Positions 3,117-24,553 of a DNA stretch of 64,000 nucleotides are shown here, in pieces. Made by a program: the position numbers and the translations under genes. Position 1 is the stretch's first letter. Every line of letters begins with the position of its first letter. Below the pieces are notes generated by a model, which saw nothing but the letters and a program-made list of their open reading frames with translations, was not told where the DNA came from and ran no database searches. The stretch is from NCBI GenBank assembly GCA_015233655.1, contig JADFXI010000002.1, positions 2,903 through 66,902 on the forward strand, in the 5' to 3' direction. Source of the DNA: Nitrospirota bacterium (GTDB lineage: Bacteria; Nitrospirota; Thermodesulfovibrionia; Thermodesulfovibrionales; Dissulfurispiraceae).

Positions 3117-3602
3117 GTGAATAAGGCAGATGGAGTGTTATTGAGACTGAGGAGTTGTCAAAGGGGCTATTCGCTTATAGAGTTTGCAATTACGATGGGG
3201 CTTGTGGCGCTTGTAGCCGGGGGAGTTTTTGCTGCTTACAAGTTCAGGGTTGCACCGGCAGCATGGACAAGCGCAAAGTTCGACATATTCAACAGCGTAC
3301 TAGCCGCAGCGCAGACCGCCCAGGCTGCAAGAGGGAATGCTTATCCTGCCCAGGCTTCTGCGGCAGCTTTAACGTCATCTGCACTAGCAGCATACGTAGG
3401 TTCGACGTCGACTGATATCAGCAACTGGACTTATCAATGCAGCGGTTCCAATTTGACGCTGGTGGTTGTAGTCCCTGACGCCCCAAGTGGCGATTCCGTG
3501 AGCATGCTGAAAGATAGAATTTCGTATTCAGTGCCGAATTCTACGGTCACTAATAGTGCCAATAGTGTCACAGTAGCTATATCGCCGGTTAATTGCCAAT
3601 AG
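3117..3602 (+). CDS. type IV prepilin-like protein
   Basis: GTG start preceded by AAAGGAGGG. The class III signal LRSCQRG|YSLIEFAITMGLVALVAGGVFAAY has Gly at -1 and Glu at +5. The C-terminal domain is Ala/Ser-rich with two Cys. Confidence 0.7.
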   Translation: MNKADGVLLRLRSCQRGYSLIEFAITMGLVALVAGGVFAAYKFRVAPAAWTSAKFDIFNSVLAAAQTAQAARGNAYPAQASAAALTSSALAAYVGSTSTDISNWTYQCSGSNLTLVVVVPDAPSGDSVSMLKDRISYSVPNSTVTNSANSVTVAISPVNCQ

Positions 3603-3621
3603 ATAAAAAAGGATTTAATGT

Positions 3622-4134
3622 ATGCAACTGTTTGTAATTGCGATTTCTGCGCTTATCGTCGGGCTGGCACTTTCGATGACGAGCTTAAATAACCCGGCCA
3701 ACTACGACACTGCTGCAGTGGCCGACAGCCTCGCGCCAGAGCATTCTCTTTACGACGGCGCTGCGAACATCACCGCTGCTGCAAATGTCTCAATGGAACG
3801 CAGCAGACTCACAAGCGTGGAACAATCGCTTGTAGACGTGTGCAGAGCCATATACTGGATGGGGAAAAACAACGGTTGTTCGCCCTTGGATGAGGGTTTT
3901 ACGTGGCAGTTCATGCTTAATCAGGGGACAACCGGCGCTTTAAATAGCGTGCTAAGCGTTCCATCGACGAGCACGTTTTCATGCGGGAGCCCCGGCCAGT
4001 ATGGGGCGTACTTGCTGCGAGGCGTGTATAGTGACCTTGGCGGGTACAAGTATAACCTGAACAATAGCACCGGCACAGGCGTTATAAGCGGGCAGGCCGA
4101 CCCGTGTGCTTATGCGGATATTGTGTATAGGTAA
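3622..4134 (+). CDS. hypothetical membrane-anchored / secreted protein (possible minor pilus component)
   Basis: 170 aa with an N-terminal hydrophobic helix (FVIAISALIVGLALSMTS) and several Cys. It sits directly after the pilin gene and abuts the ATPase gene. No G-1/E+5 motif. Confidence 0.4.
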   Translation: MQLFVIAISALIVGLALSMTSLNNPANYDTAAVADSLAPEHSLYDGAANITAAANVSMERSRLTSVEQSLVDVCRAIYWMGKNNGCSPLDEGFTWQFMLNQGTTGALNSVLSVPSTSTFSCGSPGQYGAYLLRGVYSDLGGYKYNLNNSTGTGVISGQADPCAYADIVYR

Positions 4135-5831
4135 TGGGTAGTAGAGGAGGAAACACCGTGGAATGTCTTGCTGAACAAAGTAAAAACGGTTTTTACAGAC
4201 TTTTCGTCCGGAAAGTTATCGACAGAGTGGGGAGAGATAAATATGTTTTTGCAGTGGGGAAAAAAGAGGATACAAAAGACTCACATATAATTAACACACT
4301 GAACTCTCTCGGCATCCTTGCTTATCGCGAAAGCTTTGAGTTACTCAAGGAATCCCTCAGGGAATTAGGCAACGGAGGCGTGATAATTGACTATGACCCT
4401 AACGATATAACAGTATTTGAGGGAGATGTCTACCTGTGTTCGGACGACGGCAGCCGCATAAAAGTCAAGCCAATCTTCTACCCCCATCAGGACACGGACG
4501 AGATTCAGATACTCCTGAGTTACGACCACTGCCAAAATCTTTCGCTGGAGTCGTCAATACAGAAGACGGAGGAGAGAGGAGATATTATCTGCTTCACGTT
4601 TAAGGACATAGTGAGAAAAGCACTTTTGTTTAATGCGTCTGATATACACATACTGCCTAAAACAGACCACTACAGGGTATTTTTCAGGATAGACGGGAGG
4701 TTCCTGGAAATCCCCGAGTTCCTGATGAATGTGGAGCAGGGGAAGGCTTTTTCGAGAATGATCAGAATAGAGGCGAGCGACCATACGAAAGGCAGTTTTA
4801 ACATAGATGAAACTAAAGTATCGCAGCTCGGCAAAATAGAATACTCAGACCTTGGTGTCGGACTCAGACTTGAGTTTGTCCCGGACGGCAGGACGCTTGA
4901 GCATGTTGACATTACGGCAAGGATAATTTCCAAAGGGTCGCTGGAGATATCGGCCAATATGGAAGGCAATCTAAGAAAGTGCGGCTTTGCCGAAGACGAT
5001 ATTGTTTCATTTGAGTCCATAACCCGCAGGAAAACCGGCCTTGTTGTTGTGAGTGGGGTCGTAAATTCCGGCAAATCCACAACTATATGGAATGTACTGC
5101 CGGCCCTCGACCGGACAAAAAAGATAGGGACTGTGGAGGACCCCGTGGAATGTGTTCTTGACAGGCATAACATAATTCAGCACCAGATATATGAACCTGA
5201 AAAGGAAAGCCTGAAGATGGGGTTTGAGCAATTTATAAAATCATTTAAAAGAGGCGATTACGATGTCGTGTTTATAGGCGAATGGAGGAAGTCAAAAGGA
5301 CTGACCGAAGCTATTGTTGAGCAGGCAAATGCAGGACAGCTGATATTCACCACGCTGCACGTAAAAAGTTCGTTTGAGATATACAGCGCGATCAGCGAGA
5401 TGTTTCACATACAGAAAAATGTATCTGCGAGGCTGGTGCTTATGTCTTTGAATCAGCTTCTTTTACCGAAACTCTGCAAGCACTGCAAAATAGAAACGGA
5501 CATAGGCTTTTCACAAGACGATGTAAGGTACCTGAATACCCTCACGAAGATCGAAAAGGAGAAGTTGCTGTCTTTTTCATCCAAAGGATACAGGAGGAAA
5601 GAGGAAGGGTGCAGCTATTGTTACCATACCGGATATAAGGGCAGGACAGTCATCTATGATTATTTTATTCCAACTCAGGAGTTCATAAGTGAGGTCGTCA
5701 AGAATGACCTTAGCCCTAACGAAATTAAGAACCTGGCGTTGATGTACGGGATAGGCAAGACTAAGCTATCTGTTTTCCTTGATAGGGTGAGGGAAGGCCT
5801 AATAGAAAAATCATGTGTGGAGGAAATCTGA
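4134..5831 (+). CDS. GspE/PilB-type assembly ATPase
   Basis: ASDIHILPKTDHYRVFFRIDGRF; Walker A VSGVVNSGKSTT; Asp box TVEDPVE; Walker B VVFIGEWR; His box FTTLHV. The C-terminal tetracysteine CKHCK...CSYCYHTGYKGR is typical of PilB/GspE. Confidence 0.85.
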   Translation: MGSRGGNTVECLAEQSKNGFYRLFVRKVIDRVGRDKYVFAVGKKEDTKDSHIINTLNSLGILAYRESFELLKESLRELGNGGVIIDYDPNDITVFEGDVYLCSDDGSRIKVKPIFYPHQDTDEIQILLSYDHCQNLSLESSIQKTEERGDIICFTFKDIVRKALLFNASDIHILPKTDHYRVFFRIDGRFLEIPEFLMNVEQGKAFSRMIRIEASDHTKGSFNIDETKVSQLGKIEYSDLGVGLRLEFVPDGRTLEHVDITARIISKGSLEISANMEGNLRKCGFAEDDIVSFESITRRKTGLVVVSGVVNSGKSTTIWNVLPALDRTKKIGTVEDPVECVLDRHNIIQHQIYEPEKESLKMGFEQFIKSFKRGDYDVVFIGEWRKSKGLTEAIVEQANAGQLIFTTLHVKSSFEIYSAISEMFHIQKNVSARLVLMSLNQLLLPKLCKHCKIETDIGFSQDDVRYLNTLTKIEKEKLLSFSSKGYRRKEEGCSYCYHTGYKGRTVIYDYFIPTQEFISEVVKNDLSPNEIKNLALMYGIGKTKLSVFLDRVREGLIEKSCVEEI

Positions 5832-7066
5832 CAAATATGAATGAGCTTAATTACGGGTTTGATCACAGGGAGCCATCAAAGGCCCTGGAAGAACTGAAGA
5901 GCAAGCTGGGGTCAAAAAACGGCTGGTTTGTCCGGTTCATCGCCGAGGTCATGAAAATGAAGCAGCATCAAAACATCACGGACATAGTCATCAAAGAAAA
6001 CCAACTTATCAAAGTTGGGGCCGTTAAATCCTTTATTCCCTTATTGATAAAGCTTGAATTAAACAACAGCATTTTCAAGCCCTCCGGAGACGATATAAAC
6101 TTTCTCACTCATTCCCTGCTGGGGAAGGACCACAGCTACCTCAACAGCATGTCTTCCATTGATTTCTCACTGGCCATATACGGAATAGGGATATTCAGGA
6201 TGAATTACTCCAGAGACATAATGGGCGTCGGGCTGAGCATAAGGTATTTGGACTTTGACATTCCCGAGTTTGATCGACTGCAGTACCCGGCGTATTACAA
6301 GAAATTTTTTGAGACATTGGTAAGAGAAAGGACATTGGTTGACGCGGAAGGCAAACAGCATAGAATAGGATTCATTGGAAGCGGCGGCCTGGTGCTGCAT
6401 ATAGGCCCGACCGGGAGCGGCAAAACAACGGCAATAGCAAGTGAACTGCGGCACATCGCCGACAGAATCAGCGGAACCATTGTTACTTACGAGAATCCGG
6501 TCGAATACCGCTTTGTTCAGTCAAAGGCCATAGTGAGGCAATTTGAGCTGGGCAAACACATTAAAGACCAGGAAAGGCTCTCGACATTTGAAACCCTGAA
6601 GTATCATCTCCTCAGAAACGCTCCATCAGTAGCAATGATTTCAGAAGTCAAGACCGAGCAGGAGATATTTGAGTTGATAGACGTTGCCAACAGGGGGCAC
6701 CTTGTCTTTTCGACCATGCATGCCAAGAACACAATAGAAGCCTTGTCTCTTATGCTGTCGGTGATTAAGAGCGCCAGACATTTACTTGCGACCAGCTTGC
6801 TGGCCATAGTTTCACATTATCTGCATTTGACACTGGATGGCAAGATCGTACCGGTTTATGAAGTATTTATCCCTGATAAAACGGTGAAGAAGAAAATACA
6901 GGACGGGAATCTGGGCGACATACACAGGATGTTTTACCAGGAAAAAGTCCTGGCCCAGTCATCGATGACGTTCCCTGACTGTATATCTGATCTTATGAGC
7001 AGGGGTGTAATATCGGACGAAGAAAAGAAAGAGTTAACTGCGTCCATGATGTCTGCTTTGAACTAA
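5813..7066 (+). CDS. PilT/PilU-like retraction-type ATPase (paralogue 1)
   Basis: Walker A GPTGSGKTT, TYENPVEY, MISEVKTEQE, VFSTMHAKN. No tetracysteine. The start may be ATG 5837. Confidence 0.8.
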   Translation: MCGGNLTNMNELNYGFDHREPSKALEELKSKLGSKNGWFVRFIAEVMKMKQHQNITDIVIKENQLIKVGAVKSFIPLLIKLELNNSIFKPSGDDINFLTHSLLGKDHSYLNSMSSIDFSLAIYGIGIFRMNYSRDIMGVGLSIRYLDFDIPEFDRLQYPAYYKKFFETLVRERTLVDAEGKQHRIGFIGSGGLVLHIGPTGSGKTTAIASELRHIADRISGTIVTYENPVEYRFVQSKAIVRQFELGKHIKDQERLSTFETLKYHLLRNAPSVAMISEVKTEQEIFELIDVANRGHLVFSTMHAKNTIEALSLMLSVIKSARHLLATSLLAIVSHYLHLTLDGKIVPVYEVFIPDKTVKKKIQDGNLGDIHRMFYQEKVLAQSSMTFPDCISDLMSRGVISDEEKKELTASMMSALN

Positions 7067-7096: not shown

Positions 7097-7390
7097 GTGG
7101 AAAACAAATATATCAGGGTGAATTCTGATAAGTTTTTTAACCTGAAGATAGAAATTGGCGAAGTGCTGGGGTGGCTTAAGGCTATTCGTGAGATTTCCGG
7201 AGTGGAAGACCTGTCTGCCGCTTTGGAGATATGTTATTCATATGTGCTCGATAAAGAACAATCGAGGGCAGTTGTGATAGTTACCGAACTGATATATCAG
7301 GAGGCATCAGGGAAAATAATACCGCCTATTAATCTCTACGAGACTTATAGGAATATCGCTATTGGAGATTGCAAGGACTATGCGCCTTGA
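7097..7390 (+). CDS. hypothetical protein
   Basis: 97 aa ORF in the operon gap between the ATPase and the GGDEF gene. No motif recognised. Confidence 0.35.
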   Translation: MENKYIRVNSDKFFNLKIEIGEVLGWLKAIREISGVEDLSAALEICYSYVLDKEQSRAVVIVTELIYQEASGKIIPPINLYETYRNIAIGDCKDYAP

Positions 7391-7412
7391 CTCCCTCAAA
7401 AAAGAAGCGATT

Positions 7413-8312
7413 ATGGTGAAGCCGCTGACTTTGCCGGTTTCAGTGACCGATGCACTCAAGGACTTTATTAAATTTCGAGTTGAGATAATCCCCGTCATGC
7501 ATGGAAATTATCTGAAGGGCCTGTATTTCAGAGATACTGTTGCTTTGGTCACCGATTGCAAAGACGGCAAGGCGTGTTTAGATTTTATAGCACCGGAGGC
7601 GCTCACGGAAATGCCTTATATAGACATATCATCGGGCGACAATGCCCAGATAGACAATTTAAAGACGGCGATCGAAAGCGAGACCTCTGCAGCGCTAATG
7701 ATGAAGGGCATATATCTTGGCATGGTCCCTCATAAAAAAATGGTTGCCTTTGTCCATGAGCAAAAAATAAAGGAAGCGATAATGACCAACCCTCTCACAG
7801 GGCTTCCCGGCAATTATACCATCAGAAAAGAGTTTGAGCGAAAGTCCGAAAACGAAGAAAAATATTATGTGTGCTATCTGGATCTGAACGATTTCAAAGC
7901 TTACAACGATAAGTACGGTGTGGTAAAGGGGGACGAGGTGCTTAAATTCACGTCGTTCCTTCTGCTTCAGCGGTGCGGCGAAAATTTTGTCGGTCATGTT
8001 GGCGGCGATGATTTTATATTTTTTTTACCTGTCGACACAGCCTGTACTATATTGGAAAGTATAGTTTCCGATTTCGACAAGGGGATTTTCGATTTCTACA
8101 GCGAGACTCACCGTAGGCAGGGGGGCATCATTACGTTGGACAGGGAAGGGAGAACGCGCTCCTTCCCCATAATGAGCACAGCAATAGCAGCTGTACTTGT
8201 CGAAGGCAATCACAGCTTTGAACATGTAAACACTTCCCTGGCTGCCCTGAAGAAATCTCTAAAGGAAGAATGCAGAAAAAATAAAGGAGGTTCACTATAT
8301 GCCTATGATTAG
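7413..8312 (+). CDS. CBS-domain / GGDEF-domain protein with GGDDF signature
   Basis: The N-terminal half has CBS-like repeats (PLTLPVSVTDALKDFIKFRVEIIPVMHGNYLKGLYFRD). The C-terminal half has NPLTGLPGN, YLDLNDFKAYNDKYGVVKGDEVL and VGHVGGDDFIFF. ATG 7413 is preferred to the ORF-track start at 7362. Confidence 0.75.
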   Translation: MVKPLTLPVSVTDALKDFIKFRVEIIPVMHGNYLKGLYFRDTVALVTDCKDGKACLDFIAPEALTEMPYIDISSGDNAQIDNLKTAIESETSAALMMKGIYLGMVPHKKMVAFVHEQKIKEAIMTNPLTGLPGNYTIRKEFERKSENEEKYYVCYLDLNDFKAYNDKYGVVKGDEVLKFTSFLLLQRCGENFVGHVGGDDFIFFLPVDTACTILESIVSDFDKGIFDFYSETHRRQGGIITLDREGRTRSFPIMSTAIAAVLVEGNHSFEHVNTSLAALKKSLKEECRKNKGGSLYAYD

Positions 8313-9303
8313 AGAAAACAATTTGCGGTTGCCGGGTATCATTGAGAAGGCATTGGAACTAAATGCCTCTGATATACACATGGTTCCTGGAGACCCGATC
8401 ATGTTTAGAATAGACGGCAGTATCCGCGCTGTGGACGATTATCTTGTCACTGAAGCCGACATCTACGTCCTGCTCGAAAACTATCTGAGCAGCTATACAA
8501 GACAGAAGTATGACGAGAGAAAGTCCTACGACATATCTCTCGGGCTGGACCGTATCAGGGTCAGACTGCATTTCTATGAGTCGCTGCAGGGGGCATGCGT
8601 GAGTTGCAGGCTAGTGCCGCTAATTCCCAGGACTATGGAGGAATTGGCGATCCCTCCGGTGCTGAGGAACTGGATGGATAACAGAGGCATTATCGTCATA
8701 TCCGGTCTCACCAACATGGGGAAGACCACGTCTCTTGCGTCAATGGTGGACTATATCAACGAGCACAGAGAGGAAAAGATTGTTATACTCGAGGACCCTG
8801 TGGAGTATTTGCATAACAAGAAGAAGGGACTCATAGTGCAGCGTGAGGTGGGACTGAACTCCCCGTCTTATGCCGATGCCCTGCGAGACATTGTAAGAGA
8901 GGACGTCGATACCATTGTTGTAGGGGAAGTCAGAAATGCACAGACTATGGACGCAGTGTTCGGGATGGCGGAGAGCGGGCAAAAAGTATTTACTTCGGTC
9001 CATGCATCAAGTGCCGTGGGGACGATCGAGAGAATAGTAAACATGTTTCCGCTGTCCGACTATGAAAGGGTTTGCCGGAGACTGTCATCGACATTGAATG
9101 GTGTACTGAACCAGTGGCTCTTGCCTAAACAGAAGGGCGGCAGGGTGCTGGCTGCCGAAATTTTCACAAACAGCGACGCTACCCGCTGGCTGCTGAAAGA
9201 CGGCCTTATTCATCAGATCCCTGCCTATCTAGAAAGAGGTACCGACGAGCTATGCTCTCTGAAGATATATAGGGAAAGGCTGGAGAGAAATGGTTTGTTT
9301 TGA
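8299..9303 (+). CDS. PilT-like ATPase (paralogue 2)
   Basis: ASDIHMVPGDPIMFRIDG, ISGLTNMGKTTS, LEDPVEY, VVGEVRNAQT, VFTSVHASS. Confidence 0.85.
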   Translation: MPMIRENNLRLPGIIEKALELNASDIHMVPGDPIMFRIDGSIRAVDDYLVTEADIYVLLENYLSSYTRQKYDERKSYDISLGLDRIRVRLHFYESLQGACVSCRLVPLIPRTMEELAIPPVLRNWMDNRGIIVISGLTNMGKTTSLASMVDYINEHREEKIVILEDPVEYLHNKKKGLIVQREVGLNSPSYADALRDIVREDVDTIVVGEVRNAQTMDAVFGMAESGQKVFTSVHASSAVGTIERIVNMFPLSDYERVCRRLSSTLNGVLNQWLLPKQKGGRVLAAEIFTNSDATRWLLKDGLIHQIPAYLERGTDELCSLKIYRERLERNGLF

Positions 9304-9889
9304 CGGGATAAGGGACATTAAGAACATTTTTGCGACTGTACTACTGATGCTATTCGTAGCATCCGCATACGCTCAGACTCCTTCCCCCTATGTGCAGACC
9401 TCTGATACTTTTGCTGAAAAGGCAGGACATGCAAAATGGGAGGTTCAGGGAAGCATAGGCAACAAAGTAGTCATTGTCAATGGCAGAGGGGATACGTCAG
9501 CGGTAGAAGCAGGGAGCGAAATAGACGGGTGCCTTGTAACCGCAGGTAAGGTGTTGTGCGATCTGGCAGAAAAAGAGGCTCTTGGCAAAATTAAAACAGA
9601 AATGAAATCAATAGAGGTAATTCCCAAAAAAGAGGAGGAACTTAATAAAGAGTTGGCCCATCGCCTGTTAGTCTCAATTCTGGAATCCAGGGGGAAAACC
9701 GGCCATTCTCCGGAGTGGGGCCATATTAAATTCGTGGTTTTGGACGGCAAGCTGATGATCCGTGTTATAAAAAGTTATTACGACAAAGCTAAAACCGTAT
9801 TGAAAGACGCCATCCTGGAGGAAGCTCAGGATAACGGATTTGTATATTATGCATTGGACGGGAAGATTGTGCAGATAGAGTATAAATAG
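9290..9889 (+). CDS. hypothetical secreted protein
   Basis: 199 aa with signal-peptide-like LLMLFVASAYAQ. It overlaps the end of the upstream ATPase gene. No motif. Confidence 0.4.
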   Translation: MVCFDGIRDIKNIFATVLLMLFVASAYAQTPSPYVQTSDTFAEKAGHAKWEVQGSIGNKVVIVNGRGDTSAVEAGSEIDGCLVTAGKVLCDLAEKEALGKIKTEMKSIEVIPKKEEELNKELAHRLLVSILESRGKTGHSPEWGHIKFVVLDGKLMIRVIKSYYDKAKTVLKDAILEEAQDNGFVYYALDGKIVQIEYK

Positions 9890-9898
9890 GAGCGGATA

Positions 9899-10738
9899 TT
9901 GAAAAAAATAGTTTTTAATGTTAGTACCTTTTTAATAATGGCATTATGCTCTTCACCGTCTTTTGCCTTGGTTGGCGATGGCGGGACGATTGCCGCCTGT
10001 TATCCTGGAGGGTACAGCCAGATTCTGCTCGGCGTAAAACCATTCGTATTTCAGTGCGCGCAATATACCGTGATCAAGCCGTGTCCTTATGGCGGGAAAC
10101 TGGTCGAATTCTGGCTGCCCACCTATGCGATTGAAGTCACGGGACAGGCCAATACTACGGTTTTTCCGGTGTCTCTCGCCGACGTTTTAAGTCTGGCTTC
10201 TCCTATTGAAGGCGGCATGGTACAAGGCGAAGCCGGCAATGATACTCAAACAAAATACCGTGACGTCCATGTATATCAACTTTCGACTGCTGACGTAACA
10301 GCAATTCTTGCCGGTCATCCCGGTCAGGTATGCATGCTTCTTTATGCTGATAGCATAACTGGAGGCACGGTCTTCAAGAGCGAGTTATTCCCTGGATGGA
10401 GGATCGGCAAAGACCCCACCGGCCTTAACCCTTTCTCATCCCCTGTCGGTTCCTGGGGACCTCTTTATCCACGCACTGGATGGAGCAATCACCCATCCAA
10501 TGTAACTAACAGCCTGCTGCTGTCATACAGGTCACAACAGCTTGGGGCCGAATTTTCAGCTCTATACGGAGGCACGGTATTTGTTGACAAGTATGAAATA
10601 GGCGGCCCTGTGCCGGGAGACTGCTACCAGATAGGGACTCCTACAATGCTGCAGGAGAAGGCTGCAAACAGGTCTTTGTGTGCAGACAGGATAGTCACCA
10701 TTTTCTGGAGGCATATAATAACATGCTGCCCCGTTTAG
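9899..10738 (+). CDS. TraU-like T4SS (F/G-type) periplasmic protein
   Basis: Has a signal peptide. Blocks matching my recollection of F-plasmid TraU: EFWLPTYAIEVT (YWEP..LTDVT), YRDVHVYQ (YHVHWY), SELFPGW (SEIDPTW), GSWGPLYPRTGWSNHPSNVTNSLLLSYR (GSQGSMYPFNGW...SSLLVSER), and a C-terminal WR...C. Confidence 0.7.
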   Translation: MKKIVFNVSTFLIMALCSSPSFALVGDGGTIAACYPGGYSQILLGVKPFVFQCAQYTVIKPCPYGGKLVEFWLPTYAIEVTGQANTTVFPVSLADVLSLASPIEGGMVQGEAGNDTQTKYRDVHVYQLSTADVTAILAGHPGQVCMLLYADSITGGTVFKSELFPGWRIGKDPTGLNPFSSPVGSWGPLYPRTGWSNHPSNVTNSLLLSYRSQQLGAEFSALYGGTVFVDKYEIGGPVPGDCYQIGTPTMLQEKAANRSLCADRIVTIFWRHIITCCPV

Positions 10739-11442
10739 ACCTTATGATGCATGCAGCCTGTAGAACACTGTTTGTTTTTTTCGTATTAACCTGTTCATCA
10801 GGTTATGCCTTGGACAACAATTGCGGAGTTAATTATTTTAACGGTTGGTGCAAGGAAAAGGAGAAGGAAACTCCAGCCGACACCAAAAAGGCTGAAAGCG
10901 ACCCTTATATCTGGCAGCCCAAATTTGCTAATGAACCGCCTCCTCCATTAGTCGATCTATTCAGGGACCCTTCGGCGGAAAACATAGGGCGTTACCAGGA
11001 ATGGTACAAAAAACGCATGGAACGTGTTAACGAAGTCGGTCTGATCATGGCAGGAGGTGTTGCACAGGCGCAGATGTCAAATGAGAAATCCCAGCAGGGA
11101 GCTGTAAGTGAAGTTAAGCCTGTAATATTCGATAAGGCGATATATTTTTTCAGCGAGTCCTGCCCGGCCTGCGCCAAAATGACACCGCTGCTTTCGCAAG
11201 TACAACATTCGAGCAAGCTGGTGGGCATAGGAATAAAATCCACTGACAGCAGCGCCGCTGCATACCTGCAGCGCAATGGTGTGAGGATACTGTCAGGAGG
11301 CGATAATTCCGGGGATATTGCCGCGAATTACAATGTGTCTGCGACCCCGACTCTGATTCTGCTGTCAGAAAGTGGTGATGTCGTGGGCCGATACGAAGGT
11401 GTGATGGACAAGGCGGCTCTCTCGGGGATTTTTGGAAATTAA
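10723..11442 (+). CDS. thioredoxin-fold TrbB/TraF-like thiol-disulfide isomerase
   Basis: Has a signal peptide (FVFFVLTCSSGYA). CxxC in a thioredoxin context (FFSESCPACAKMTP) with a later cis-Pro motif (ATPTLILL). Its position next to traU/traH-like genes matches F-type systems. Confidence 0.55.
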   Translation: MLPRLDLMMHAACRTLFVFFVLTCSSGYALDNNCGVNYFNGWCKEKEKETPADTKKAESDPYIWQPKFANEPPPPLVDLFRDPSAENIGRYQEWYKKRMERVNEVGLIMAGGVAQAQMSNEKSQQGAVSEVKPVIFDKAIYFFSESCPACAKMTPLLSQVQHSSKLVGIGIKSTDSSAAAYLQRNGVRILSGGDNSGDIAANYNVSATPTLILLSESGDVVGRYEGVMDKAALSGIFGN

Positions 11443-15503: not shown

Positions 15504-15650
15504 CGCCAATCCATCCGAAGAAGAAGTCGAAGTAATTATTTGTCAACCTTGCGGTATTCCTATATAGCAAGGTAATTGCCTTCCGCAAATTTTCTCCGGT
15601 CACAAGTAATATCTCATTATAAAACCAGTTGCAGGCATCTGTAACATTAT

Positions 15651-16181: not shown

Positions 16182-16187
16182 AGGAAA

Positions 16188-17180
16188 ATGGCGGCAATAT
16201 TTGCGAAGACCGAGCAGGGCATTGAGGACATCCTATTAACCGGCGTTGCGCTTGGCGCGAGCGATATACATCTTACTGAGTTGAACCAGCCTGTATTTCG
16301 CGTTGACGGAGACTTGAGGAGAAGCGACCTTCATCCGGTGGACATTTCAGATATGAACAGGTTTCTGGATAATGTGATACCAGCCGGTTTCTCGGGCAAA
16401 GACGGAGATTTTTCATTTACTTTTTCTGAGAGGAGATGGAGGGGAAACTATTTTCATTCTAATGGCAAGAGGCTTTCGATTGCGCTTAGGCTGCTTCCCC
16501 TTCAAATACCTGACATAAGGGATTTAGGTCTGCCGGCAAGTTTCAACCGCATTGCAGAAATGAAGAACGGTATCGTGCTGGTGACCGGTCCTACCGGCAG
16601 CGGCAAGTCTACAACCATTGCAGCCATGATCAAGCGTATGATCGAGACAAAGAGCATGCATCTTATAACGATTGAAAACCCCGTAGAGTATCTATTTGAA
16701 AGCACCAACTATTCAGTGGTAAACCAGCGGGAGATAGGATGCGATACCGACGATATCACTCTTGCCCTCAAGTATGCCTTGAGGCAGGACCCTGATGTGA
16801 TACTGGTTGGAGAAATACGTGATACTGAAACCGCAAGACTTGCGGTCAATGCCGCAGAGACCGGTCACCTTGTTTTCGCCACACTTCATACGATAAATGT
16901 AGTAGAGACGGTCAACCGGCTCTACGGGTTGTTCCCTCCCCAGGAAAGGCATCTTGTTCAGCAGCAAATAGCTGCAACCCTTAACCTGACAGTAGCCCAA
17001 AGGCTAATAAAAAAACCGTCTGGAGGAAGAATGGCCCTTGTCGAGGCTTTATTTCCTAATGAATCAATAAGAGAGCTTATCCGGGAAGGCAGGAGCCATG
17101 AAATTCCGCAGCATATTAATGGGGCTGATTATATAAACACATTTGTCGGATACGCTGACGGGAGATGTCATGTCGCTTGA
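16188..17180 (+). CDS. PilT/VirB11-like ATPase (paralogue 3)
   Basis: ASDIHLTELNQPVFRVDGDL, VTGPTGSGKSTT, IENPVEY, LVGEIRDTET, VFATLHT. It overlaps the traC/virB4-like start. Confidence 0.85.
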   Translation: MAAIFAKTEQGIEDILLTGVALGASDIHLTELNQPVFRVDGDLRRSDLHPVDISDMNRFLDNVIPAGFSGKDGDFSFTFSERRWRGNYFHSNGKRLSIALRLLPLQIPDIRDLGLPASFNRIAEMKNGIVLVTGPTGSGKSTTIAAMIKRMIETKSMHLITIENPVEYLFESTNYSVVNQREIGCDTDDITLALKYALRQDPDVILVGEIRDTETARLAVNAAETGHLVFATLHTINVVETVNRLYGLFPPQERHLVQQQIAATLNLTVAQRLIKKPSGGRMALVEALFPNESIRELIREGRSHEIPQHINGADYINTFVGYADGRCHVA

Positions 17181-19794
17181 AAAGACGTTAGTGGAACTTG
17201 GCTTGGATGGAGTGAGATTTGATTCTGTTAGGGACGTCAACAGGTTATTCACAACGCTGCCGTCTTTTGGCAGTATGCTACCGTATAGGAGCTTCGACGA
17301 AGGGCATAAAGTGTTTATTCTGGGGGATTTCTCCAAAAAAGAGAGATATGTCGGCGCCATGTGGGAATACACTCCATTTGTACATGAGGCAAACAGCCTC
17401 GACGGACAAAAACTCGCAATAGCGAATCTGATGGAAATGGCCCTCCTACAAATACCTGAGGGTTATGCATTTCAATTCATTATTGTGTCGGACCGAAATG
17501 TCAGTTCGTTTCTTCCTCTCCCCTCCAATGCAGTTGGTGACCCTGAGGCAGACGCATCGGAAATGGGAGAGGCCACTGCCATTAACACTTTATATAACGA
17601 GCAGGTGATGTTTTTGCATACCAGTTCCAAGAGCGGGCTATGGGGCGGGAAAAGTGTTTTCCCGCGGACGATGAGGTTTTACATAACGGTCTTTCATGTG
17701 CCGCGAAAAATTACGCTGGGAGAAAGATCAGTAAGCGCCATTGAAAGAGTAGAGCTGGAATCAACTACTATGGACATCAGTAAGAAAATAAATGTCTTCA
17801 GCAGCAATATAACTGTATTTGAGTCCATGATGAAAAACAATGGCTTCGGTTTGCGCAGATGCGAAGCCGGAGACCTCATAGGCTATTTTCACCAACACTT
17901 GCACAAGAATATGTTTAAGGACGGACTGGGTGCACCAGAATACATACCCCAAATAGATTTAAGCCGGCAGCTATTCAGGACATTTTTATATACAGGCGAT
18001 ACTTTTGTATATTCAGATGGGCATTATTACAGGACCAGTGCAGCGACAAATGCACCGCAGTATACCGTGCCGGGTATCATGTATAAGCTTATGGAAGTGC
18101 CTGGAGACATTCAGATATGCCTGACCGGTTTTGTTGAAGTCCAGGACAAAGAAAAGAACGCACTAAAATGGAAAGGGAACTTTGCGTCTTATGGGCTGAT
18201 GAATCCTTTTGGCAGAGAGGACAATGACAATTCAGCCATAGCAGCGGATGTAGACACAATCGAAAAGGACATGCTTGCCGGCAAAAAAGTGTTCCATTTT
18301 TCTTTTTACGTTACTAATGCGGGCGAAACATGCGAGACTGCAAATACGTATGTGCAAAAAGTTAAGGCTAAAATTGCGGATATGGAAATACCTATGCTTG
18401 CGGACAATATTATCGCCCAAAGTCTTTTTAAGAATTCTCTTCCTTTTCATTACGCTGCTCTTGAAAATAGCAGTCATCTATATCGTACATTTAAACTTCC
18501 CTCACACTCTTTTGCTCAAATGGTCCCGGCGACCGGCGCCTGGCTCGGCACGCGAAACCCCGGACTGATCGGGCTATCGCGGACATGCGAACCGGTGTAT
18601 CTCGATTTTTTTGATGGGGCGGTGCCGCATTTTATTATATCCGGAGAAACCGGAACAGGCAAAAGCGCCCTGCTGAATATGCTGGCAATAAGATTTTTGA
18701 AAAGGGGCGACAGGTTTTTTATCATTGACATGATGGGCTCTTACAAGAAACTCTGCTCTCTGGTCGGCGGTGAGTATATATCGTTTAACCTAAATAACCC
18801 TGTATCTTATAATCCATTTGACTGCGCACTCGACAAGGAGCGTATCCTGCTGCTGTCCAACTTCCTTGCGTCGATCATGACGAGGAAGAATGAGGAATTG
18901 GCCCAGTCTGATATAGCGTTGATTGACAAGGCCATTGAATTCACATACGAAAAACTCGGGCACTACAACAGGACACCTGAATTAGAAGATTTCAACAATG
19001 TGCTGAAATCTCATTTTGGCGAAAAAGGGCAGTCTCTTTCAGAGCGACTGGCATTTTACGTCGGTAAAGGAAAATACGCGAACTTCTTCAGGAGGTCTTC
19101 ATTCAATGTGAATAATCATTTCATAGTATTTGATATTGGAGAGCTTAAAGAGTCTCCCGATCTAATGCGGGCAATGCTTTTCAACATCATGCTGGTTATA
19201 GGGGAGCAGGTTAGAAAATTGGTAGGGCGTAAATGGCTTCCAATTGATGAGGCGCATCGAATATTCATTGAATCCGTTGGGGCCGATTTTGTTGACAGTG
19301 CGTTCAGGACGTATCGGCATTACAATACCGCAGTGGGAGTAATGACTCAAAAGGTCTCGGACCTTCTGAAAGCCGGCAAAGTTGGAGAGGTCTGTCTTTC
19401 CCAGGCGAACGTCCAGATCTATTTCAGACAGCCGAGCCTGAGCGTGCTTGATGCTATGGGGTACCTGGGGCTCTCGGAACCTGATGCGTATACGACTGAA
19501 AATTTGAAAAGCATGATGGGGTTTTATAGCGAGGCATTAATTCATATAAAGAGACTGAGAGCAGGAGGCTCGGGTAAAGGCGTAATCAGGTTCATGTCCA
19601 CGCCGCTCAATTATGCCACGTTCACGACCGACCCGCCTGACAAAGAGGCATATGCAGTAATCAGGAAGCAAATACGGGAAAACATGCCTGCGGCAGAGGA
19701 AGCCGATGTCGAAAAGGAAACGACGAGAATCTTTGCCAAGACATACCCTCATGGCGTGTCAGCAGGCTTAATAAACGCAGCCGATATTTGGTAG
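17143..19794 (+). CDS. traC: TraC/VirB4-family T4SS ATPase
   Basis: 883 aa, F-TraC-like in size. Walker A ISGETGTGKSALLN and Walker B WLPIDEAHRIF. An alternative start is ATG 17170. Confidence 0.85.
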   Translation: MSDTLTGDVMSLEKTLVELGLDGVRFDSVRDVNRLFTTLPSFGSMLPYRSFDEGHKVFILGDFSKKERYVGAMWEYTPFVHEANSLDGQKLAIANLMEMALLQIPEGYAFQFIIVSDRNVSSFLPLPSNAVGDPEADASEMGEATAINTLYNEQVMFLHTSSKSGLWGGKSVFPRTMRFYITVFHVPRKITLGERSVSAIERVELESTTMDISKKINVFSSNITVFESMMKNNGFGLRRCEAGDLIGYFHQHLHKNMFKDGLGAPEYIPQIDLSRQLFRTFLYTGDTFVYSDGHYYRTSAATNAPQYTVPGIMYKLMEVPGDIQICLTGFVEVQDKEKNALKWKGNFASYGLMNPFGREDNDNSAIAADVDTIEKDMLAGKKVFHFSFYVTNAGETCETANTYVQKVKAKIADMEIPMLADNIIAQSLFKNSLPFHYAALENSSHLYRTFKLPSHSFAQMVPATGAWLGTRNPGLIGLSRTCEPVYLDFFDGAVPHFIISGETGTGKSALLNMLAIRFLKRGDRFFIIDMMGSYKKLCSLVGGEYISFNLNNPVSYNPFDCALDKERILLLSNFLASIMTRKNEELAQSDIALIDKAIEFTYEKLGHYNRTPELEDFNNVLKSHFGEKGQSLSERLAFYVGKGKYANFFRRSSFNVNNHFIVFDIGELKESPDLMRAMLFNIMLVIGEQVRKLVGRKWLPIDEAHRIFIESVGADFVDSAFRTYRHYNTAVGVMTQKVSDLLKAGKVGEVCLSQANVQIYFRQPSLSVLDAMGYLGLSEPDAYTTENLKSMMGFYSEALIHIKRLRAGGSGKGVIRFMSTPLNYATFTTDPPDKEAYAVIRKQIRENMPAAEEADVEKETTRIFAKTYPHGVSAGLINAADIW

Positions 19795-20253: not shown

Positions 20254-21765
20254 ATGCGTGACGAAAAGCAATTAAAACGAACAATACTTCAACAGCTTTC
20301 ACCGGCGCTTGTTTTCAGTGATCTATCGCCTTACAAAGATGCCGGGAAATTCGTGTGCATATGTCCCAGGTGCGGCGAATATACGCTTATAGCCGAGTCC
20401 GGTTCAGACCAGGGGAGATGCACCGGGCAAGCATGCACCTATAATACTAATTTTTGGGACTATATAAAAGATAGAGATAAGCTTGATGACAGAGAAACTT
20501 TGGAAAGACTGGCAGAAATAGCCGGGGTCCCTCTAAACGGGCAGAAGACACTGGCGGATGTGTTCATGCTGTTTTTTAAGTCGTCCCAGGCTTTTCTCAT
20601 GAGTGAAGCAGGCCCGGCTGTTTCAGCTAGATTCTTTCTGCATGAAAGGGGCTTTGCCGTTGATGCCATAGCTGAATTTGGGTTTTGCCTGCATCCCGGA
20701 GACTTGTCTTTGAAACAGCTTATGAAAAAACATTATGTTCCTGATATCCTGCTGATAAAGAGCGGTCTCGTGGACATGCCAGAAAGCGAAAACAAGTTGC
20801 TGCTGCCTTTAAAGGATAAAAGCGCCAGAATAGCGGGATTTGTCGTTATCCCCACAAGCAGGGACAAAGAGACCGAACATGATGTGTACCTGCACAACTT
20901 CGGAAGAGGAGGCCATATTTTCAGCGAACACCTGGCGCATAGAGAGATAAATAAGACCCGGATAGCCATAATCGCCGCCAGTGCCATGGAGGTATGTTAT
21001 CTCCACACTAAGGGTTATAAAAACGCATTGTCTATAGATGGAGATACCGTCCAGGACATACATGTTGACTATTTGCTGAAATTCGGTGCAAAGAATGTGC
21101 TGCTGTGCAGAAAAGACCGCGCAAACTGCATTAGAAATTCAGCGATAAATATATTTAAAAGGGGTATTGATGTTTTCAAGGTCCCTCTTCCTGACACCGT
21201 AGGCGCAGCCCTATATGTGGAATTAAGGGGAACGAATGACTTCAACGAAATAATACGGAAGGCCGAACCCGTGTGGAAATGGATAGCTTCAACACTTGTT
21301 GCTGATTTAAGAAAGGAATTTCATCACGTGCATGAAACTGTTTTGATAGATGAGGCAGTGTCCAAAGCTGAAGAGATGGTCAATTTATTGAGAGGATCAC
21401 TGTATCTTAATGACTTCCTCGGAGAATTATCCGATGAACTAAAGATTCCGGTGAGCAGCCTCGCCAAGATATTCAGGTCAGAGCCGCACGAAATAAAATT
21501 TGAGAGCATGAAAGACGATTTGAATGACCTGGTTCACAGTTTTTCGATCGAGGTTGCCGGCTATCTTGAAAATTATAGGATTGACATTGTTCAGGACAGG
21601 GCGTCACAGCTTCTGTACGGCTGCCCTTTGCCCAGAAACACGCAGGGAAGCACGTTTAAAGAATTTCTAAGGGCAATTATAGAGAGATCGAAGAGACTCG
21701 ATTACAGAGGGATAGAGAATCTGCTTAGAAGCAAGACGAATCCCGAAAAAAAATGGGGCCGGTAG
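20254..21765 (+). CDS. zinc-ribbon protein, possible Toprim/primase-like
   Basis: 503 aa with an N-terminal CICPRCGEYT...CTGQAC zinc ribbon. The central IAIIAASAMEVCYLH...SIDGDT is weakly Toprim-like. Its position upstream of the T4CP matches plasmid primases. Confidence 0.35.
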   Translation: MRDEKQLKRTILQQLSPALVFSDLSPYKDAGKFVCICPRCGEYTLIAESGSDQGRCTGQACTYNTNFWDYIKDRDKLDDRETLERLAEIAGVPLNGQKTLADVFMLFFKSSQAFLMSEAGPAVSARFFLHERGFAVDAIAEFGFCLHPGDLSLKQLMKKHYVPDILLIKSGLVDMPESENKLLLPLKDKSARIAGFVVIPTSRDKETEHDVYLHNFGRGGHIFSEHLAHREINKTRIAIIAASAMEVCYLHTKGYKNALSIDGDTVQDIHVDYLLKFGAKNVLLCRKDRANCIRNSAINIFKRGIDVFKVPLPDTVGAALYVELRGTNDFNEIIRKAEPVWKWIASTLVADLRKEFHHVHETVLIDEAVSKAEEMVNLLRGSLYLNDFLGELSDELKIPVSSLAKIFRSEPHEIKFESMKDDLNDLVHSFSIEVAGYLENYRIDIVQDRASQLLYGCPLPRNTQGSTFKEFLRAIIERSKRLDYRGIENLLRSKTNPEKKWGR

Positions 21766-23768
21766 TGGCACTGTCGGATATTGAGCGTGTGATAAACAAA
21801 GGATTCCTTTCAGGCCTGGCTGAATCAATTAAGAGAACGGTCAGCTTGCATGTAAGTCCAAGTCAGGTCCTGGTGCTTATTTTTTTGGTCCTTCTCGTGA
21901 TTGTTTTCATTGTCTTGTTTTTTGTGACAATTTATTCGCGCGGAAGAGTTCGCATAAAAGACAATCCGGCCACTTCAGGCCGCTTTGCCAGTCACCGGGA
22001 AATATTGTCCAGACTCACTATCCCGGGCAAAGCGCGCCTTTATGCCATATTCGGAGCGGGCGGTAGTGTGATTTTTTATGTGTTTGGCATGGTGCCCTAT
22101 TACCTTTTGCATCACCGGATCACGGTATCTCCGGCCATTGCTGTTATGTCTTTTGCAACATCTTTAGGACTCACGCACGTTCTTATTAAAGAATCCCGTA
22201 TTATCGAGAGAAAAACTGGGGATGATAATTTTTTTCAGATTGGCGCTTACAGGGGCAGGCGAATAGGGATAAACAAGAAGAGGAGGCAAGAAGGGATATT
22301 AATTCCAGGGCCTCCAGGTTCAGGAAAAACATCGAGTTTTATGATTACCAATATCATTAATGATTCTCTGAGCGACTGCTCCGTTTTCTGCGTCGACGTC
22401 AAGCCTGACGAGGACATTGTGGATATAGTGGGCAATTCATGGTGGGCGAGGGGAAGAAAGGTTATAAATTTTGATCCCTACAAATGGAAAATGCACTTCA
22501 ACCCTCTAATGATGATCGAAAGTGATTTTTCGAGTCAGAAGACGCATGACGCAGTCAAAGAGATTATCAATGCGCTGTTTGGGAGCTATTTTGCGATGGT
22601 CGGAGAAGTGAAACCTGATACGGACCATTTCATAGGCAGGGAATACCGTTTAATTTGGGCCGTTATAATGGCGGTTCTCAAAATGCCGGCGGAATACAGA
22701 AATCTTAATACAGTGCTCGATGCCGTCAAGCTCCCTCCGGATGAACTGACCAGGTTTATTGCAAGCACTGGAGACAGGAATGTGATTGACGAGTTCAGAT
22801 TTTTTGCCGATACAACTTCGCAAGAGAGAGTCAATGCAATGCAAGGCCTGTATCGAAAGCTTCAGTTTATGGATGGTCCGACCCTGCGGCAGGCACTTAT
22901 ACGGAATGATTTTGATATAGAAATATTCTTTAACGAGCCTTGTCTTTTTGTTGTAAAAGCGGAGATGCACAGGGACGATATGAAGGTCATGGCGAGCATG
23001 ATCGCACGTCTTCTAATGCTGCGTGACTACGAAAAAGCGGCTGAGGCCAATAGGAAGGGGGTAAAGCCCCGCCCTGCATGGTTTTATCTTGACGAATTTG
23101 CTCGCCTGAATTTGCCGAAAGTCGATGAATTCGCAGCGACCGGAAGGTCTTCAGAAGCTGGCCTGACCATCTACGTTCAGGACAAGTCGGACATCGAAGG
23201 TATCATGAAAAAAATGAAATCCGGCAGCGCCCAGTCTTTTATATCATCACTGCGGACAATTATCGTGCTGCCCGGATGCTCCTACGAAATGTGCCAGGAA
23301 ATATCGCTGTGGCTAGGGGAAACATCATTTAATTCTCCCATGAAGAGCAGGGGAGTTTTCGACTTTATTTCTTTCAGATATTATGAAAAAGCAGAGAAGG
23401 CCCCGCTGATAACCGCAGATAATATCCATTATATGGATGAAAACATGTGCCTGGTGCTGACAAAAGGAATCAGGCCTTTTTTTGCCAAACAAATCCCCTA
23501 CTATAAGGACGGGAAATACAAAAACCTGCTGAATAAGCCATTCACATTTTACATGCCGGAGAGCACTAAGGATATTAAAAAAGGTGAGATAGCAGATTTA
23601 TTGAAAGAACGGGCTGCCGATGTGCAGGGATACATGAAGAAGATCGAGAAGGCAGAAAGCAGGACGATAACCGAAGCCGCCCGTGATGAAAGAGCAACGG
23701 CCCAGTCCGAAAGGGCCGCCCAAATAGGTGCTTTGCAGGAAACCGAATTCCCGATGGACAGTCTATGA
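21753..23768 (+). CDS. type IV coupling protein (TraD/VirD4/TraG family)
   Basis: N-terminal TM helices. Walker A LIPGPPGSGKTSS and Walker B FYLDEFARL. 671 aa. Confidence 0.8.
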   Translation: MGPVVALSDIERVINKGFLSGLAESIKRTVSLHVSPSQVLVLIFLVLLVIVFIVLFFVTIYSRGRVRIKDNPATSGRFASHREILSRLTIPGKARLYAIFGAGGSVIFYVFGMVPYYLLHHRITVSPAIAVMSFATSLGLTHVLIKESRIIERKTGDDNFFQIGAYRGRRIGINKKRRQEGILIPGPPGSGKTSSFMITNIINDSLSDCSVFCVDVKPDEDIVDIVGNSWWARGRKVINFDPYKWKMHFNPLMMIESDFSSQKTHDAVKEIINALFGSYFAMVGEVKPDTDHFIGREYRLIWAVIMAVLKMPAEYRNLNTVLDAVKLPPDELTRFIASTGDRNVIDEFRFFADTTSQERVNAMQGLYRKLQFMDGPTLRQALIRNDFDIEIFFNEPCLFVVKAEMHRDDMKVMASMIARLLMLRDYEKAAEANRKGVKPRPAWFYLDEFARLNLPKVDEFAATGRSSEAGLTIYVQDKSDIEGIMKKMKSGSAQSFISSLRTIIVLPGCSYEMCQEISLWLGETSFNSPMKSRGVFDFISFRYYEKAEKAPLITADNIHYMDENMCLVLTKGIRPFFAKQIPYYKDGKYKNLLNKPFTFYMPESTKDIKKGEIADLLKERAADVQGYMKKIEKAESRTITEAARDERATAQSERAAQIGALQETEFPMDSL

Positions 23769-24553
23769 GAATAGAGAAGATAACAGAGCGCGATTATGAA
23801 ATATTGAAGCATCTTTCGTATGGGCCAAGCAATATTCTTTCAATAGGGAAGAAGTTTTTTCTTCGACGGGATGCTTCAAAAGAATTTTCCAAATATACTT
23901 GGCGGCGGCTCTTGCAACTGCAGAACGCCGGACTCATACAGTGCAAGAAAGTCGACAGACATGACAGCCCTATCGTTGTTCTGCAGAAGGCAGGAGCATA
24001 TGAGGTAGCCTTGAGATACGGGCTTGAAATCGAAAATATACGCTGTGTGTTTCCCAAGACGATTGAACTCATGCACGACCTGATGGTTGCATCCACTATG
24101 CGCAAGATGGTCGAAGAGGCCGAGATACATAATCTTTATAAAATAGAATATATCCATACGGAGTATTTCACGCGTAAAGTATTCGGAAGGCAGATAAAGA
24201 AGAAAGGTGAGAAAAAAAACGTTTATTTCCCCGACTTCAGAATTCGGATAGTGCCCTATCAAGGCGAGGCATATACTTTTGATGTCGAAATAGACGCAGC
24301 CAGCATGGGCAGGTCAATGGTATTCGATAAAATATCATCTTTCAGAAATAATGTGCTTCTGGTGGTCCCTAACGGCGAGCGCCTGAGAAGGATATTTCAG
24401 TATTTACAGAACGACATGGGTAGAAAGCAGGCAATCCTTCCACCTGTCTCCTTTGTACTGTGGTCTCACTTTATTTCCAATGGGTGCAGATTCAGCGAAG
24501 TAATACAGTTTCCGTCGGGTGACAGAGGGGTTTTACCGATTTCGATGAAATAG
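23765..24553 (+). CDS. Replic_Relax (replication-relaxation) family protein, candidate non-canonical relaxase
   Basis: N-terminal winged-helix-like ITERDYEILKHL...WRRLLQLQNAGLIQ, then LMHDLMVAST and PDF...DVEID blocks as in PF13814-type proteins. It overlaps the T4CP stop. Confidence 0.5.
   Translation: MRIEKITERDYEILKHLSYGPSNILSIGKKFFLRRDASKEFSKYTWRRLLQLQNAGLIQCKKVDRHDSPIVVLQKAGAYEVALRYGLEIENIRCVFPKTIELMHDLMVASTMRKMVEEAEIHNLYKIEYIHTEYFTRKVFGRQIKKKGEKKNVYFPDFRIRIVPYQGEAYTFDVEIDAASMGRSMVFDKISSFRNNVLLVVPNGERLRRIFQYLQNDMGRKQAILPPVSFVLWSHFISNGCRFSEVIQFPSGDRGVLPISMK

Follow-up and report, generated by a model that had tools for sequence, protein, structure and literature searches.

In diderm bacteria, conjugation is considered to require an envelope-spanning core of the VirB7/VirB9/VirB10 type together with a VirB2 pilus. 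In PAPI-1, an integrative and conjugative element (ICE), a type IVb pilus is required for transfer; the question of whether VirB4 and VirD4 work through a type IV pilus machine has been raised for this element, and a chimeric VirB4/VirD4-pilus route proposed (PMC12857230). ICEclc has a neighbourhood composed of TraG_N, a secreted 465-aa protein, TraU, a thioredoxin-like protein and VirB4 (PMC10018362), and systems of the mating-pair formation (MPF) classes MPF_G and MPF_F have TraU, TraH, TraF and TraW in common (PMC4027160). The thin pilus of R64 is required in liquid only (PMC12857230). The stretch of DNA analysed here (64 kb; the window) belongs to the metagenome-assembled genome (MAG) of an uncultivated, Dissulfurispiraceae-like Nitrospirota bacterium. 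ORF calling found in it a single co-oriented series of open reading frames (ORFs) on the + strand, from 3117 to 25481, which overlap or are spaced by <35 bp at most junctions; this is the tightly packed block described in the original prediction. The block brings together parts of a type IV pilus and of an F- or G-type transfer apparatus. Judging from the sequence, we give about an even chance to the reading that an integrated conjugative element has its transfer region here and is equipped with a lineage-specific chimera of pilus and F/G-type mating apparatus. Its architecture had been put forward as possibly new; the chimera idea as such was already proposed for PAPI-1 (PMC12857230), while the family looks like an undescribed variant, and no description of this Nitrospirota system was found in a literature search of incomplete coverage.

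The closest known system is the PAPI-1/ICEclc/ICEHin1056 family (MPF_G ICEs). As in that family, the element is integrated; as in PAPI-1 with its pil2 pilus, a type IVb pilus of the PilN/PilP/PilQ/PilR/PilS/PilV kind lies beside VirB4 and VirD4, and the TraG_N - secreted ~450-aa protein - TraU - thioredoxin-like - VirB4 neighbourhood of ICEclc recurs. Unlike in MPF_G, the VirB4 of the block scores best with the F-type TraC model of NCBIfam (TIGR02746, 261 bits, below the cut-off of 567) and poorly with the PFL_4706 type (TIGR03744, 59.8 bits against a cut-off of 520.6), and no match to any TIGR037xx ICE family (TIGR0374x-0375x) was obtained at E<0.1. Homologues of VirB3/6/8, TraB/K/V and VirB2 are recognisable in MPF_G systems (PMC4027160), whereas none was detectable here; the relaxase is putatively of the MOBC class, there are extra PilT/GGDEF pairs, and the pilus and transfer genes are interleaved. 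Membership of MPF_G was discarded on the VirB4 type and the TIGR037xx families. With R64 (IncI1, MPF_I) the block shares a type IVb thin-pilus set and a PilT-like ATPase (TraJ, part of the R64 type IV secretion system, T4SS); weak hints suggest that DotF/TraP-like periplasmic proteins may be common to both. The R64 T4SS is, however, complete and Dot/Icm-like, the VirB4 of the block is not of the MPF_I TraU type, and its parts like TraU of F, TraG_N and TrbB belong to F/G systems.

The likeness to F (MPF_F) lies in a VirB4 that scores best, although sub-cut-off, as TraC-type and has a TraC_F_IV domain, in a TraU-like protein, in a TrbB-like thiol-disulfide protein and in a TraG_N-like protein, and the order TraU...TrbB...[TraH]-TraG is mirrored. 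In contrast to F, TraA/L/E/K/B/V/W/N/F, TrbC and TraH were undetectable; F itself has neither a VirB11/PilT ATPase nor a type IV pilin, and its relaxase is of the MOBF class. Membership of MPF_F was rejected, since the core proteins TraL/E/K/B/V and the periplasmic TraH, TraW, TrbC and TraN were not found and TraU was weak; MPF_C and MPF_B were dropped in view of the scores of the VirB4, which favour the F type. Like the minimal MPF_FA and MPF_FATA systems of monoderm bacteria, the block has a reduced set in which VirB4 and a coupling protein are joined by a VirB6-like protein and a cell-wall hydrolase, without VirB7/9/10, and its VirD4 has the Firmicutes-type conju_CD1115 as its best NCBIfam model. 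As a member of the Nitrospirota, the host should be diderm. Both TraU and a pilus built on a secretin are diderm features that set the locus apart from MPF_FA/MPF_FATA, and neither a VirB8-like nor a VirB3-like gene was found in it. Relaxases matching PF13814, the family suggested for the one encoded here, are typical of Firmicutes and Actinobacteria (PMC3424549). By the logic that CONJScan applies to self-transmissible elements (a cluster of VirB4, coupling protein and relaxase), VirB4 and VirD4 were found directly and the relaxase through PF13814-matching homologues only.

Pilus and transfer genes of the block

The first gene of the block (3117-3602, +) encodes a type IV prepilin, the candidate major pilin, which matches N_methyl (23.2 bits, cut-off 21.2) and TIGR02532 above their cut-offs. 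It bears the class-III signal originally described (QRG|YSLIE), a 17-residue leader and C-terminal cysteines. Its orthologues in relatives L011, L013, L014, L023 and L024 (loci of relatives are cited by number) are 39-44% identical, with a dN/dS of 0.15-0.25 (ratio of non-synonymous to synonymous substitution rates; pairwise Nei-Gojobori estimates of the window against eight relatives, dS ~0.7 to >2). A sequence search of the pilin against the PDB returned marginal matches to Geopilin and TcpA only. It is followed by a gene for a 170-aa protein with an N-terminal hydrophobic helix (3622-4134, +), which has no family match in Pfam or NCBIfam, is always found between pilin and PilB, and is 49-82% identical in eight relatives (dN/dS ~0.15). 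The next gene (4134-5831, +) specifies a PilB/GspE-like assembly ATPase (T2SSE, E 1e-42; best NCBIfam models PilB and GspE, both sub-cut-off; dN/dS 0.05). A class-III prepilin and a PilQ/PilB-type assembly ATPase, as expected of a type IVb pilus, are therefore present in the window; the full set of type IVb features is reached only when the relatives are counted in.

The three other members of the GspE/PilT superfamily claimed for the block were likewise found to match T2SSE, and all three are PilT-like. The first (5813-7066, +; E 9e-21; PilT family, 150 bits) is diverged, with a ~190-aa N-terminal extension, and its orthologues come after PilB in L001, L011, L014, L023, L024 and L025. Next come a gene for a 97-aa protein without a family match (7097-7390, +) and one for a GGDEF-like protein (7362-8312, +; Pfam GGDEF, E 4e-11, over part of the domain) in which GGDDF replaces GGDEF. 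In L014, a 258-aa protein (L014:13152-13928) is a fusion of the 97-aa domain and a degenerate GGDEF-like domain (GTYDF). The second PilT-like ATPase (8299-9303, +; T2SSE, E 8e-36; PilT family, 271 bits against a cut-off of 319) forms with the GGDEF-like protein a pair kept in L005, L006, L008 and L014. The pairing of each extra PilT paralogue with a GGDEF-like protein suggests that pilus retraction is under the control of a nucleotide signal. The GGDEF-like gene was missing from the original gene list, as were those for a primase (20254-21765) and a clan-AA protease (11764-12183).

The transfer genes begin with one for a 199-aa secreted or bitopic protein, a candidate periplasmic connector (9290-9889, +; 23 homologues, none with a Pfam domain). 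The TraU-like periplasmic protein that follows (9899-10738, +) has eight invariant cysteines and falls just short of the Pfam TraU cut-off (26.4 against 26.5 bits), although its assignment is favoured by a BLASTP match to F TraU (E 2e-4) with a common GSxGxxYPxxGW motif, by alignment of the family profile to F TraU with hhalign (63% probability, E 7e-5, 200 columns) and by faint TraU matches of its orthologues in precomputed Pfam tables. A secreted thioredoxin-fold protein with a CxxC motif (CPAC; 10678-11442, +), an analogue of TrbB/TraF/DsbC, matches Thioredoxin_8, Thioredoxin_2 and Thioredoxin above cut-off; its match to Pfam TraF is weak, and the TrbB and TraF-like models of NCBIfam stay sub-cut-off. 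The next transfer gene (12316-13602, +) encodes a secreted, cysteine-rich 428-aa protein that carries a signal peptide and in which eight cysteines are invariant; its 16 homologues lack Pfam domains. This had been labelled TraH-like, a label that was withdrawn: neither the protein nor 14 relatives gave any match in Pfam or NCBIfam (Pfam E<1, 15 members), hhalign against F TraH was negative, and a Foldseek comparison of its AlphaFold2 (AF2) model with the PDB gave no match. What is retained is its position, directly before the TraG_N-like gene, which is that of TraH in F. Searches of plasmids by tblastn with the 428-aa and TraU-like proteins gave no match.

The TraG_N/VirB6-like gene (13614-15503, +) would specify a polytopic inner-membrane protein with five predicted transmembrane (TM) helices. 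It matches NF010295 (E 4e-4) and, by BLASTP, F TraG (E 5e-4); the hhalign match (E 0.02) covers the same region, and the orthologues in L008 and L009 show faint TraG_N matches in Pfam. Sequence searches of the TraU-like and TraG_N-like proteins against the PDB gave no match. A lytic transglycosylase of the SLT family (15651-16181, +), of the VirB1/IagB/TrbN kind in Pfam and NCBIfam, precedes the third PilT-family ATPase (16188-17180, +). The latter scores 321 bits with TIGR01420 (cut-off 319), 157 bits with TraJ and 150 bits with DotB, overlaps the start of the VirB4 gene by 38 bp, lies before VirB4 in every relative covering the site, and shares 83-87% identity with its counterparts in close relatives (75% for that of L008). 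It may be the functional analogue of VirB11/TraJ/DotB. The VirB4 ATPase of the TraC (F-type) kind (17143-19794, +) matches P-loop_TraG, TraC_F_IV and DUF87 above the Pfam cut-offs, shows 21-25% identity to any plasmid TraC, and has no TM segment and hence no fusion to VirB3. The VirD4-type coupling protein (21753-23768, +), with N-terminal TM helices, matches T4SS-DNA_transf (E 1.5e-32, 113.5 bits against a cut-off of 20.1) and TraG-D_C. Family matches thus bear out the thioredoxin, transglycosylase, TraC/VirB4 and VirD4 labels given originally.

The VirD4 gene overlaps by 4 bp, and is translationally coupled to, a gene for a putative Replic_Relax-family protein (23765-24553, +) with winged-helix and PD-(D/E)XK parts, of which the N-terminal winged helix-turn-helix is supported. 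The window protein itself gave no Pfam match to PF13814 (Replic_Relax); an exhaustive phmmer search returned 94 homologues, and 31 of the 60 that were aligned match the family (best E 4e-14), with the PD...ExD...K pattern retained in the alignment. This family corresponds to relaxase class MOBC (PMC5357655), and its fold is of the PD-(D/E)XK kind (PMC3424549). The last gene of the series (24564-25481, +) encodes a 305-aa secreted or bitopic coiled-coil protein without a Pfam match and with a weak NCBIfam match to IncI1 TraP (E 0.01); it is kept in L001, L003, L004 and L007 (56-61% identity).

All ORFs of the block are intact and all its genes are under purifying selection. The dN/dS values lie between 0.03 and 0.37 for every gene, a range covering the pilus as well as the transfer genes, with 0.05-0.07 for VirB4 and 0.03-0.05 for the relaxase.

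Linkage in relatives and chromosomal setting

The close relatives of the VirB4 gene all occur in Nitrospirota/Dissulfurispiraceae MAGs, several of them on contigs of 0.3-1.7 Mb. In the window, housekeeping genes are found from 37368 on (old yellow enzyme, rhomboid, GroEL, MltG and IspG; further on GlnE, GlnA and Amt). Taken together, the long contigs of the relatives and these genes from ~37.4 kb place the block in a chromosome. The right border of the element lies between a ParM module (31439-32833) and 37368; its left end is outside the window, which opens 3.1 kb upstream of the pilin gene. The 428-aa protein has an identical counterpart, HQL08_00575, in a 'Nitrospirae bacterium' MAG; for three proteins encoded in the window, a look-up by exact sequence gave no match. 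Diverged second copies of two block genes were seen on small contigs of the same MAG, namely of the 199-aa gene (P0056, HQL08_16415, 77% identity) and of the 428-aa gene (P0005, HQL08_15155, 63%), so the MAG probably carries more than one element of the family.

The core order connector-TraU-thioredoxin-428-TraG_N-SLT-PilT-VirB4-VirD4-relaxase is found in L001, L002, L004, L005, L008, L013, L018, L023 and L024. Across relatives the ATPases and the relaxase are 75-88% identical to those of the window and the envelope proteins 31-65%; the relaxase of the degraded L007 copy is 62% identical. The pilus genes remain linked to the transfer core across Nitrospirota MAGs, with the order of the modules varying. 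L014 has the order GGDEF-PilT-secretin-254-335-435-332-pilin-180-PilB-PilT-258-504-TraU-Trx-442-811 (Trx, thioredoxin). The pilus set of L011 (secretin-258-324-421-367-261-pilin-173-PilB-PilT-103-283) lies ~24 kb upstream of the transfer set of L002 on one 1.7-Mb contig. L024, on the contig of L001, reads ...322-443-347-TA-368-TA-pilin-175-PilB-PilT-93-242-TA-TraU... (TA, toxin-antitoxin), and in L026 the TraG_N gene adjoins a run from secretin to PilB. The interleaving of pilus and transfer genes noticed in the window is therefore matched by linkage in relatives. The conservation of gene order that had been proposed as a check holds for this linkage and for the order within the transfer core, but not for the arrangement of the modules, which are shuffled.

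In relatives, the stretch just upstream of the pilin gene encodes a secretin of the PilN type, PilP, a platform resembling T2SSF and a large minor pilin. Their secretins have TIGR02520 (R64 PilN) as best or second-best model, sub-cut-off, with MshL scoring alongside; a bitopic protein of 319-392 aa matches the PilP model TIGR03021 (37.4 bits against a cut-off of 34.65); the platform candidate (332-367 aa) has weak T2SSF and ComGB matches; and the large prepilin (N_methyl, 421-460 aa) is PilV-like. These four parts identify the pilus module as an R64/PAPI-1-like type IVb thin pilus. None of them had a match anywhere in the 64-kb window. The original claim that both gene sets are incomplete consequently stands for the transfer core, which is undetectable in relatives too, and not for the pilus set, which is completed upstream in relatives. 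A TA pair of the window (1348-1955) is 89-92% identical to a BrnT/BrnA-like pair located between the platform gene and the pilin gene in L024; given this likeness, and with no more than 3.1 kb of the window lying upstream of the pilin gene, the proximal pilus genes of the present copy may lie beyond the window or contig.

L013, in which the proximal genes are lacking within 8.8 kb, was considered as proof of a reduced variant and dropped, since in L024 these genes lie behind insertions and an absence over 8.8 kb is not proof. In the closest relative, L023, the platform-like gene (3033-4033) and the TraG_N-like gene (15345-17274) are each split in two ORFs, reflecting either decay or frameshift errors of long-read assembly. 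A distant locus, L016:202-11620 (GCA_017880035.1), encodes in one block a 757-aa ATPase of the AAA_10 kind, an AAA protein, a secretin, a protein with a weak T2SSF match and a PilB that is 35% identical to the window PilB. Its AAA_10 ATPase was rejected as evidence of a widespread hybrid, as it shares the P-loop region alone with the window VirB4.

Missing core and proposed passage across the outer membrane

The missing parts listed in the original prediction are indeed missing from the window: it revealed neither a secretin nor a platform, nor a prepilin peptidase, nor any VirB3/5/7/8/9/10-like gene. Pfam and NCBIfam scans of all block ORFs gave no match to VirB2/3/5/7/8/9/10 or to TraA/L/E/K/B/V/W/N, and the alignment of family profiles to every F Tra protein with hhalign gave no core equivalent. 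The precomputed Pfam tables of the relatives contain no core equivalent either, faint matches included. The fold search that had been suggested for the unassigned ORFs, applied to the 199- and 428-aa proteins, yielded no VirB9 or VirB10. The AF2 model of the 199-aa protein (predicted local distance difference test, pLDDT, 70) consists of a small beta domain, a coiled coil and a C-terminal alpha/beta domain; with Foldseek against the PDB its top matches, weak ones, are 7muc_AF and 7muc_Af (DotF2 and DotF1 of the Dot/Icm core; E 0.07, probability 0.99), and the authors of the 7muc structure likened the DotF fold to GspC-HR and PilP. The 428-aa model (pLDDT 61) is all-alpha.

If the block serves the transfer of an integrated conjugative element, it would comprise two modules. 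The first would be a type IVb thin pilus made up of the pilin, its 170-aa partner, PilB and the PilT-like ATPases with their GGDEF-like partners. The second would combine envelope parts (the DotF/PilP-like connector, TraU, the Dsb-like thioredoxin, the 428-aa protein, the TraG_N/VirB6-like protein and SLT) with ATPases and DNA-processing proteins (PilT, the TraC-like VirB4, VirD4 and the putative MOBC relaxase). The Replic_Relax relaxase would nick the element, and VirD4 would pass the DNA to a VirB4/TraG_N inner-membrane complex with the help of the adjacent PilT-like ATPase. The type IV pilus, extended by PilB and retracted by the PilT paralogues, would find recipients and draw them in. For the outer membrane, the sole channel candidate would be a secretin, whether encoded by the element itself, as it is in relatives, or supplied by the host.

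A stronger form of this proposal, which we put forward only tentatively, is that the block represents an undescribed MPF class in which the type IVb pilus machine replaces the VirB2 pilus and the VirB7/9/10 core, working with a VirB4/VirD4/TraG_N translocon and TraU-type factors. If so, it would be a natural, compact version of the route so far hypothesised for PAPI-1 only. The family is compact and conserved, has a secretin as its single outer-membrane candidate and lacks a detectable T4SS core, which would make it well suited as a test of this question. It further hints that conjugative elements of poorly studied phyla may escape standard MPF typing.

Several points weigh against the block being such a transfer region. 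Within the 64-kb window no integrase, att site or oriT was found. A prepilin peptidase (PilU/PilD, peptidase A24) was absent both from the window and from the Pfam tables of the relatives, so that a host enzyme would be needed. The proximal pilus genes of this copy, if not beyond the window or contig, may have been lost locally. The product of 23765-24553 is a putative MOBC-class relaxase by a transitive assignment through its homologues only. The TraG_N label, retained from the original prediction, comes from four weak matches to one and the same membrane region. The DotF match hints weakly that the 199-aa protein may be a periplasmic connector docking on an outer-membrane ring. Fold searches against the PDB covered two unassigned ORFs (199 and 428 aa), whose models are of moderate confidence, and the conserved 170-, 97-, 428- and 305-aa ORFs could be VirB-like parts diverged past detection. 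The reading is, moreover, computational throughout.

Such divergence is at the heart of a possible, although doubtful, alternative: two ordinary systems would lie side by side as in R64, a thin pilus that only stabilises mating and a complete T4SS with diverged VirB2/3/8/9/10. The missing parts would have to be sought among the 170-, 97-, 199-, 428- and 305-aa proteins and genes outside the window. Conserved secreted or membrane ORFs without assignment are indeed present, the 199-aa protein weakly resembles DotF, which is associated with the core of type IVB secretion systems, and the 305-aa protein has its weak match to IncI1 TraP. Moreover, ICEclc core parts were recognised through structure prediction alone (PMC10018362), and orphan profiles may conceal distant homologues (Guglielmini et al., PMC4027160). 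Against this, the all-alpha 428-aa model and the small domains of the 199-aa model show nothing of the beta-barrel of VirB9 or VirB10; the block contains no small two-TM VirB2/VirB3-like ORF; and the relatives lack even a faint Pfam match to the VirB8/9/10, TraK/B/V or TrbI families. In addition, the L002 element ends directly after the relaxase gene and in L013 non-transfer genes abut the pilin gene upstream, which leaves little room for extra genes.

It is unlikely that this copy is a defective or domesticated remnant that lost its secretin, platform and minor pilin, gained insertions and can no longer transfer itself. The lack of a secretin, platform and PilP in 64 kb would fit such a history, as would the ORFs at 73-898, which are unmatched in relatives, the copy-specific insertions (protease, primase and TA pairs) and the split platform and TraG_N genes of L023. 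However, the block ORFs are all intact, and the low dN/dS values include those of the pilin and PilB. The proximal pilus genes of L024 are located further upstream, past a BrnT/BrnA-like TA pair that the window shares, and may here be outside the window; with a PilJ-type chemoreceptor encoded in the flank, the host probably has type IV pilus parts of its own, which could complement the set.

DNA uptake can be driven by type IV pili with PilT. That the apparatus serves no conjugating element, and instead DNA release or uptake or contact-dependent protein delivery, jobs that relatives of T4SSs do perform (PMC12857230), is very improbable given the strongly conserved relaxase-family gene coupled to VirD4 and the primase, ParM and TA genes, which are typical of self-transmissible elements.

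Insertions, maintenance genes and flank

Two genes interrupt the transfer core. One, between the thioredoxin and 428-aa genes (11764-12183, +), encodes a clan-AA aspartic protease recognised in Pfam and NCBIfam; the other, between VirB4 and VirD4 (20254-21765, +), a DnaG-like primase (TIGR01391, E 1e-10). Both are absent from all relatives and hence are insertions particular to this copy; VirB4 and VirD4 are directly adjacent in L001 and L002. TA pairs were seen in or beside the block at 1348-1955, 2160-2885 and 26371-27248 (the third of the RES/Xre kind), and relatives have other TA pairs at other block junctions.

Downstream of the block lies an orphan gene (27361-30678, +) for a 1105-aa protein like the beta' subunit of RNA polymerase, with all five Rpb1 domains and the NADFDGD motif. 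It is ~47% identical to canonical rpoC, has no adjacent rpoB, shows a dN/dS of 0.11 and keeps its synteny to the transfer block in L001, L003, L004 and L007; a beta' paralogue borne by a mobile element is unusual. It is followed on the opposite strand (31439-32833, -) by a gene for a ParM/actin-like segregation ATPase (ALP_N, MreB-like_C) and a small upstream partner ORF, syntenic in L001, which form a plasmid-type maintenance module within a chromosomal element. The interval from the ParM module to the housekeeping genes contains genes for an HD-domain dGTPase-like protein and a PLD-like nuclease (34276-36652, +), possibly defence cargo carried at the right end of the element. No tRNA gene or Rfam family was found in the window. 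In the host flank, at 53565-55780 (+), genes for CheW and for a methyl-accepting protein with a PilJ N-terminal domain were observed, indicating that the host probably has a type IVa pilus chemosensory system of its own.

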